64,000 nucleotides of DNA, taken from assembly GCF_022846255.1 (NCBI RefSeq), contig NZ_AP025682.1, one strand, 5' to 3'. The translations under genes and the position numbers were made by a program. A model generated the notes under the pieces. That model did not search any database, was not told the origin of the DNA, and saw nothing but the letters and a program-made list of their open reading frames with translations. Source of the stretch: Escherichia coli (lineage in GTDB: Bacteria; Pseudomonadota; Gammaproteobacteria; Enterobacterales; Enterobacteriaceae). This document shows positions 17,829 through 18,243 of the stretch, one piece after another (the stretch's first letter is position 1; every line of letters begins with the position of its first letter).

Positions 17829-18068
17829 TCAAACCATCACCAGCGATAACTCTTTGCCAAGCGCCTTAGCCGCGAGCTGGACGGCGTCGATTTTTGTCGC
17901 ATGGTGCAAATTAAATAGGCGAGTAATCTCCTGTTTATGTTTGCCAATTCGCCTGGCTAACTCTTGCTGAGTGATTTCTGACTGTAAAAAAGCATTTAAC
18001 AGCAATACCTTAGAGGCGACGCTCAAAGGCACTTCAATAAAGTGATCGTGACTATTTAATGGCGAAGT
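17829..18068 (-). pseudogene. hicB: hicB antitoxin remnant: C-terminal HTH domain only
   Basis: 67-codon ORF (GTG start at 18032) is the HTH C-terminus of HicB; 12 more HicB-like codons (SPLNSHDHFIE) lie upstream in frame behind a TAA; no room for hicA or the HicB N-domain before yncJ. Confidence 0.55.
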
Positions 18069-18243
18069 TTACCTCCGTGTGTAATGTGCTCGAAAATAGC
18101 ACTAAATCGCCGCAACGGCAGAATGCAATGCAAAATCAGGAAGGAAGATTCCAGAATTTCTTTGCTCTAATTTGCAAAACTGAATAATAACCTCAAGAAA
18201 CGATCGGCATCATAGCGGCAAAAGGTTAGAAAAAGGTGGCGGG

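Follow-up and report, generated by a model that had tools for sequence, protein, structure and literature searches.

A hicB remnant between ydcR and yncJ of Escherichia coli, probably left by a single 445-bp deletion in the hicAB toxin-antitoxin operon

The stretch of Escherichia coli DNA analysed here (64,000 nucleotides, hereafter the window) contains a piece of the antitoxin gene hicB between ydcR, which served as the anchor of the locus, and yncJ (Table 1). By alignment and translation, this piece (238 bp) corresponds to the last 78 codons of E. coli hicB and codes for the final part of the N-domain, the linker and the complete C-terminal helix-turn-helix (HTH) domain. The 601 bp around the site were 100% identical in strain FDAARGOS_536, and the retained 238 bp were about 98% identical to a K-12-like locus. 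Elsewhere in the window, matches at the Rfam gathering level were found for sok, RydC, MicC and FnrS (35091-35242, 35802-35865, 56263-56383 and 63342-63459, respectively). Sok is the type I antitoxin RNA of hok/sok. All four are ordinary E. coli small RNAs, and none is located near the remnant.

Table 1. Coordinates of features at the ydcR-yncJ site and at compared loci (window positions unless a locus is named)
Feature	Position	Strand	Remark
ydcR	16344..17750	-	MocR/GntR-type regulator with aminotransferase-like domain; downstream neighbour
ACAGTT-N24-26-CTGATATA motif	17780-17826; Citrobacter loci 3910-3960	-	
ydcR promoter-like site TTGTCA-16-TAGACT	17784..17811	-	consensus match only
hicB remnant	17829..18066	-	codons 61-138 and stop, plus last base of codon 60
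67-codon ORF from GTG	17829..18032	-	HicB residues 72-138 with P103H
Deletion junction	18066..18067		from alignment with the full locus; L002 1868-2312 missing
Surviving palindrome arm GTTTAC	18067..18072		other arm, spacer and one base of this arm deleted
In-frame TAA	18069..18071	-	5' limit of the remnant frame, 12 codons above the GTG
Retained hicA-upstream region	18073..18243	-	4 substitutions relative to the K-12-like locus
yncJ (DUF2554)	18244..18474	+	divergent neighbour on the other side of the remnant
rlhA/ydcP	18566-20569	-	next gene after yncJ
22-bp hicA deletion	L003 2092-2246 (E. coli 22-250)		alignment A1 columns 626-647
ydcR-leader duplication	L008 and L009, about 3060-3110 and 3900-3960; L018, about 3900-3990		

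It had originally been predicted that only the C-terminal HTH part of HicB is present here, as 67 codons from a GTG, and this was borne out. The product of the 67-codon ORF matched the E. coli HicB structure (PDB 6HPB) at 66 of 67 residues (E = 3.9e-35), with P103H as the only difference, and contained a complete Pfam HTH_3 domain (E = 2.1e-8), that is, the DNA-binding domain found at the C-terminus of HicB. The N-terminal toxin-binding domain with its partial RNase H fold was missing: the Pfam HicB_lk_antitox match covers residues 3-67 of full-length HicB, the remnant begins at residue 61 and the ORF at residue 72. The GTG is the codon of Val72, which is GTA in K-12-like strains, and direct reading of the sequence before it, CACTTTATTGAAGTG, revealed no Shine-Dalgarno element. 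The 12 further HicB-like codons that had been noticed upstream behind a stop proved to be 11 codons identical to HicB 61-71 (SPLNSHDHFIE) and a hybrid junction codon, ACT; the TAA beyond them derives from promoter-side sequence, GGAGGTAAAC. In the alignment, the native ATG of hicB and the ribosome-binding site upstream of it fall inside the deleted segment, and the ORF is probably not translated.

The distance to the start codon of yncJ is 211 bp from the GTG, as against the roughly 210 bp of the original prediction, and 177 bp from the deletion junction. Neither can hold hicA (177 bp) together with the missing 180 bp of hicB, so there is no room for a full locus, just as had been argued. No HicA-like ORF was found within 18067-18243. 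The K-12-like HicA matches Pfam PF07927 (HicA_toxin), and the whole of hicA lies inside the segment that is absent from the window, which leaves hicB without an adjacent toxin gene.

Compared with a full-length locus (L002, from strain CM56, used as reference), the window lacks exactly 445 bp, and the flanks on both sides are clean. The gene-side breakpoint follows the second base of HicB codon 60, and the promoter-side breakpoint lies at the first base of the second arm of a palindrome, GTAAACA-TTAG-TGTTTAC, located upstream of hicA. The alignment with a K-12-like locus that had been proposed for finding the breakpoint and any flanking repeats thus gave a junction at 18066|18067, without direct repeats flanking the deletion and with only 1 nt of microhomology (G). 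We also noted a TTTAC pentamer close to each end; being out of register with the junction, it was rejected as a flanking repeat. The lost segment comprises hicA, the hicA-hicB spacer, the hicB ribosome-binding site and start codon, HicB residues 1-60 and most of the palindrome.

The promoters P1 and P2 and the operator hicO of hicAB were reportedly described by Turnbull and Gerdes in 2017, and the structure of HicAB is said to have been reported by Manav et al. in 2019. In the 241 bp upstream of hicA in the intact locus, the palindrome is the only inverted repeat with separated arms. A TGaTATACT element follows 8 nt past it, and the hicA ribosome-binding site a further 7 to 10 nt on. According to reviews, K-12 hicAB is transcribed from two promoters: the upstream P1 carries a CRP-S site and responds to activation by Sxy, and the downstream P2 is repressed by HicB bound to the inverted repeat hicO, its transcript starting at the hicA ribosome-binding site. 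Because the layout that we read in the sequence fits these review descriptions, on which our placement of hicO, P1 and P2 also relies, the palindrome is likely hicO and TGaTATACT is likely the extended -10 element of P2. In the window, the TGaTATACT element is deleted and 6 nt of one 7-nt arm are all that is left of the palindrome, so that an intact operator or autoregulated promoter is missing; the 445 bp would then have held the likely P2 -10 element and the probable operator as well. P1, with its CRP-S site and response to Sxy, is probably retained in 18073-18243. A CRP-S candidate, TTTTGCAAATTAG(A/C)GCAAAG, was seen in the retained 177 bp; its half-site spacing is not canonical and we make no claim for it. 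A simple σ70 scan of the intact locus detected neither P1 nor P2, and such a scan is therefore uninformative about transcription of the remnant.

We examined the occurrence of this allele in 5426 complete E. coli genomes with three queries: the 601-bp flanks, the 445-bp segment, and a 50-mer centred on the junction, for which a megablast match cannot be seeded by an undeleted locus. The flanks were found in 5416 of the 5426 genomes, either in one piece or split by DNA annotated as hicA and hicB, and the 445-bp segment in 4256. The exact junction was present in 1092 genomes, about a fifth of the set, and once in each. About 68 genomes had the flanks and lacked both the 445-bp segment and the exact junction. 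In plasmid-labelled records, 5, 4 and 1 matching places were seen for the flank, segment and junction queries, respectively, and one genome, WP7-S17-ESBL-04, had the 445-bp segment in two places, possibly because it is split by an insertion.

An artefact of assembly or sequencing, with full hicAB really present, is hardly credible. The same junction recurs in 1092 complete genomes, obtained independently by many laboratories on many platforms, the gene is consistently annotated as truncated, and we found no point that supports such an artefact; the sequence error that might have hidden a full hicA and hicB is thereby excluded. The same count disposes of the other finding that the original prediction had named as its refutation, namely that the 67-aa ORF is the conserved ancestral gene in most strains.

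The junction carriers include UTI89, 536, ATCC 25922, clone D i14, an O25b:H4-ST131 strain, APEC O1:K1:H7 and E2348/69, which we take to be phylogroup B2 strains. UTI89 is assigned to B2 in the literature, and a preprint covering 6220 genomes reported that phylogroup B2 lost hicAB (bioRxiv 10.1101/486399). Since the junction is identical in all carriers and has almost no microhomology, we infer that the 445-bp deletion arose once. The same junction was also found on a minority haplotype (for example, in strains E700025 and AST20), whose flanks differ from the window by about 2%. With two flanking haplotypes about 2% apart, a single origin requires either an early event or later recombination.

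The direction of the change was examined by searching species-representative genomes for YdcR. This yielded 80 ydcR loci, which were screened over as much as 4 kb of sequence preceding ydcR with HicA, HicB, YncJ and RlhA by tblastn. Four Escherichia records from outside the deletion clade (E. whittamii, Escherichia sp. E1V33, strain E69 and strain SCPM-O-B-8794) have full hicA-hicB immediately upstream of ydcR, and a full-length HicB of 138 aa is on record for E. marmotae. Full hicAB also occurs at the same spot in Citrobacter NCU1, Awk 4 and Cu233 and in a Citrobacter MAG, where the palindrome upstream of hicA is kept: it reads GTAAACATAAATGTTTAC in Cu233, and NCU1 has a single base change in the centre and the MAG a single base change in one arm. 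No HicB-like sequence was detected upstream of ydcR in most loci of genera that lack hicAB (Klebsiella, Enterobacter, Kluyvera, Lelliottia, Salmonella diarizonae and others).

These loci bear on an alternative that had been left open beside the deletion, in which the short form is ancestral and a cassette of hicA and the HicB N-domain was inserted into a pre-existing, stand-alone HTH gene in the strains that carry it. Many enterobacterial genera are indeed without hicAB at the ydcR site, and at a deeper level hicAB does look inserted upstream of ydcR. In NCU1 and Awk 4, an imperfectly duplicated stretch of the ydcR leader, CATAACAGTT...GTTATGT...CTGAT, flanks the cassette on both sides, and the site in their relative Citrobacter R56 consists of a short ydcR leader with one copy of the duplicated stretch, no ORF and no cassette, a pattern that fits either an empty target site or precise excision. 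However, the empty sites contain no HTH ORF and, apart from Citrobacter remnants, gave no tblastn match to HicB upstream of ydcR. The E. coli remnant retains 11 HicB codons beyond the HTH domain, behind the stop, as well as one half of a palindrome found complete in the long allele only, and an insertion would have had to complete this palindrome by chance. Moreover, outgroup Escherichia species have the long form, and an N-terminal HicB-fold domain joined to an HTH domain is the standard architecture of HicB across bacteria. Insertion into an HTH gene is thus very improbable, and of the two possibilities initially considered only the deletion was upheld, by the clean 445-bp gap and by full hicAB in other Escherichia and in Citrobacter. 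On the evidence of these loci, hicAB was inserted long ago, immediately upstream of the control region of ydcR and not into an HTH gene, and the short allele of E. coli is a later deletion and the derived state.

Deletions were not confined to E. coli. In Citrobacter, we identified independent hicAB remnants that form a graded series (L008-L022, positions 3200-4000 of the sequences upstream of ydcR), and every one of them is anchored at the 3' end of hicB. On2M has lost hicA and has HicB from residue 6, C. portucalensis A60 has HicB from about residue 50, and C. amalonaticus AUH (L022) has it from about residue 64, with the promoter-side breakpoint inside the palindrome. The HTH is internally deleted in C. 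youngae CCUG 30791 and in wls619, FP75 has only the last 25 residues of HicB, C. gillenii about 10 residues, and further Citrobacter loci have no hicAB left. The deletions of E. coli and C. amalonaticus both start inside the palindrome, and their ends in the HicB linker are no more than about 5 codons apart; this near-coincidence of two cases could reflect a deletion hotspot at the palindrome or a narrow window of tolerated deletions.

The region beyond the hicB stop codon may account for the common anchor. A promoter-like site for ydcR begins 18 bp past the stop codon, and no terminator was predicted between hicB and ydcR. A motif common to E. coli and Citrobacter, ACAGTT followed after 24-26 nt by CTGATATA, begins 3 nt past the E. 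coli hicB stop codon, and may be a site for YdcR (MocR-type) or for another regulator. In several Citrobacter, this motif was observed inside an 8-bp perfect inverted repeat, AACTGTTA-ACTA-TAACAGTT. If deletions that extend into the ydcR control region are selected against, erosion would proceed from the hicA side, and the simplest reading is that the HTH tail survives by its position rather than by its function.

We further analyzed whether sequence constraint is visible in the remnant, using six further loci of the deletion clade and the K-12-like reference. By our own codon reading, these loci displayed five distinct amino-acid replacements, namely P103H in the lineage of the window, A to V, K to E and two K to N changes at separate sites, against about four silent changes. 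The sample is small and subject to ascertainment bias, its loci having been picked partly as odd-looking. The window itself differs from the K-12-like protein tail by the P103H replacement only. Two alleles have lost the frame. A nonsense change (Ser to stop) at 17980 was found by a marker query in 28 deletion-clade genomes (L085 259 and L086), whose flanking haplotype is about 2% off the window and nearer to K-12 at several sites. A 144-bp deletion (17864-18007) between CCTTAG repeats, which removes most of the HTH-coding part of the remnant, was found in 27 deletion-clade genomes, including EPEC E2348/69 (L089 287-292). The 67-codon frame is thus broken in at least 55 genomes, and about 95% of the deletion clade still have it open. 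As each disrupted allele is present in nearly 30 complete genomes, the HTH tail is dispensable, and constraint looks relaxed in this clade.

It might still be proposed that the remnant was co-opted, being transcribed from P1 and translated from the GTG into a small dimeric protein of the Xre type with a new target, or that the deletion alters a P1 read-through that drives ydcR. The HTH domain is intact in the window, HTH motifs dimerise HicB according to a review, and the title of a 2019 structural paper calls this domain structurally stable. The lack of a predicted terminator between the remnant and ydcR would be consistent with read-through, and the independent deletion of C. amalonaticus, from the palindrome to about codon 64, has likewise left the HTH frame open. 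Against this, the GTG has no Shine-Dalgarno element and the native start is deleted, the remnant's own operator is cut to one incomplete arm, and both the nonsense and the HTH-deleting alleles have spread to nearly 30 complete genomes each. Other Citrobacter remnants destroy the HTH, and the path of read-through to ydcR is also present with an intact hicAB. We consider such co-option improbable, and distinctly improbable the more specific proposal that a P1-driven, HTH-only tail acts as a small DNA-binding protein, or that the deletion rewires ydcR, in the extraintestinal-pathogenic B2 lineage. The remnant may be transcribed as part of a read-through RNA, and a weak residual function is conceivable on sequence grounds.

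All testable features of a pseudogene were recognised in the remnant, among them the loss of native translation start signals and the truncation of a gene whose orthologues at this syntenic position are full-length, the full form being ancestral. In contrast, three of the four defining features of a functional HicAB were missing. A stand-alone Xre regulator, as a conserved independent gene with its own start and ribosome-binding site, was not found either: the short form is limited to one E. coli deletion clade and is absent from the genera that lack hicAB.

The best explanation of the locus as a whole, to which we assign a probability of roughly 0.93, is a single 445-bp deletion of hicAB that left a decaying, non-functional HTH remnant. 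One illegitimate deletion in an ancestor of the UTI89/536/ST131/E2348/69 lineage would have cut the chromosomal type II operon. The HicA toxin and the toxin-binding domain of HicB were lost together, and for this reason the loss was not lethal. The residue would be an HTH fragment without function, having no native start, no toxin to neutralise and no intact operator. In this explanation it persists because it is young, and perhaps also because its stop codon is followed at once by the control region of ydcR; it is decaying further by point mutation and by small repeat-mediated deletions.

Other routes of hicAB loss were observed as well. In E. coli 22-250, hicB is intact and hicA has lost 22 bp at a site flanked by a 4-bp CGCA repeat, which puts the toxin gene out of frame (Table 1); the 90-95% identity band of the 445-bp query suggests that this independent deletion is present in about 886 genomes. 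In Escherichia sp. E1V33 (L005 3285-3457), hicA appears frameshifted, with HicA matches in two frames, and the hicB product shows 100% identity with K-12-like HicB, which suggests a further independent inactivation of the toxin.

Part of this picture is already known, namely the annotation of a hicB pseudogene and the reported loss of hicAB in B2. NCBI PGAP labels the remnant of the identical strain, at the same coordinates, as 'hicB, incomplete, missing N-terminus', and the same was seen in all carriers whose records were opened; the doubly deleted form is labelled 'HicB family antitoxin, missing N- and C-terminus'. The hicB pseudogenes of UTI89, 536, ATCC 25922, ST131 and E2348/69 are the same allele with an identical junction. 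The exact 67-aa product is also deposited in NCBI under both HicB-family and HTH names. Our analysis contributes no more than the breakpoints, counts of the alleles, the polarity and the decay that followed. For annotators, it means that the label of the 67-codon HTH ORF should be hicB pseudogene, rather than regulator or antitoxin, and for work on toxin-antitoxin systems, that the deletion lineage is without HicA and HicB function at the yncJ-ydcR site.

The closest known system is E. coli K-12 hicAB (hicA b4532, hicB b1438), a type II system at the same chromosomal site between yncJ and ydcR. Compared with it, the remnant has neither hicA nor the start signals of hicB, and HicB residues 1-60, most of the palindrome and the likely -10 element of P2 are gone too; the remnant cannot work as a toxin-antitoxin pair. 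Stand-alone HTH regulators of the Xre/Cro type (HTH_3) share the complete HTH_3 domain with the remnant, which differs from them in having no start signals of its own, in not being conserved separately and in having arisen when a two-domain protein was truncated. That chromosomal toxin-antitoxin loci decay through deletions and nonsense mutations is an accepted idea, exemplified by E. coli ccdO157 in the work of Mine et al. (2009), as cited in PMC7167474, and the allele counts and the parallel Citrobacter remnants make hicAB a tidy example of such erosion. Like hicAB, ccdO157 is a locus at a conserved position that has been lost in some lineages, although the two belong to different toxin-antitoxin families. 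In the hicAB allele described here, the toxin and the N-terminal domain of the antitoxin are gone in one step, rather than the toxin being inactivated first.
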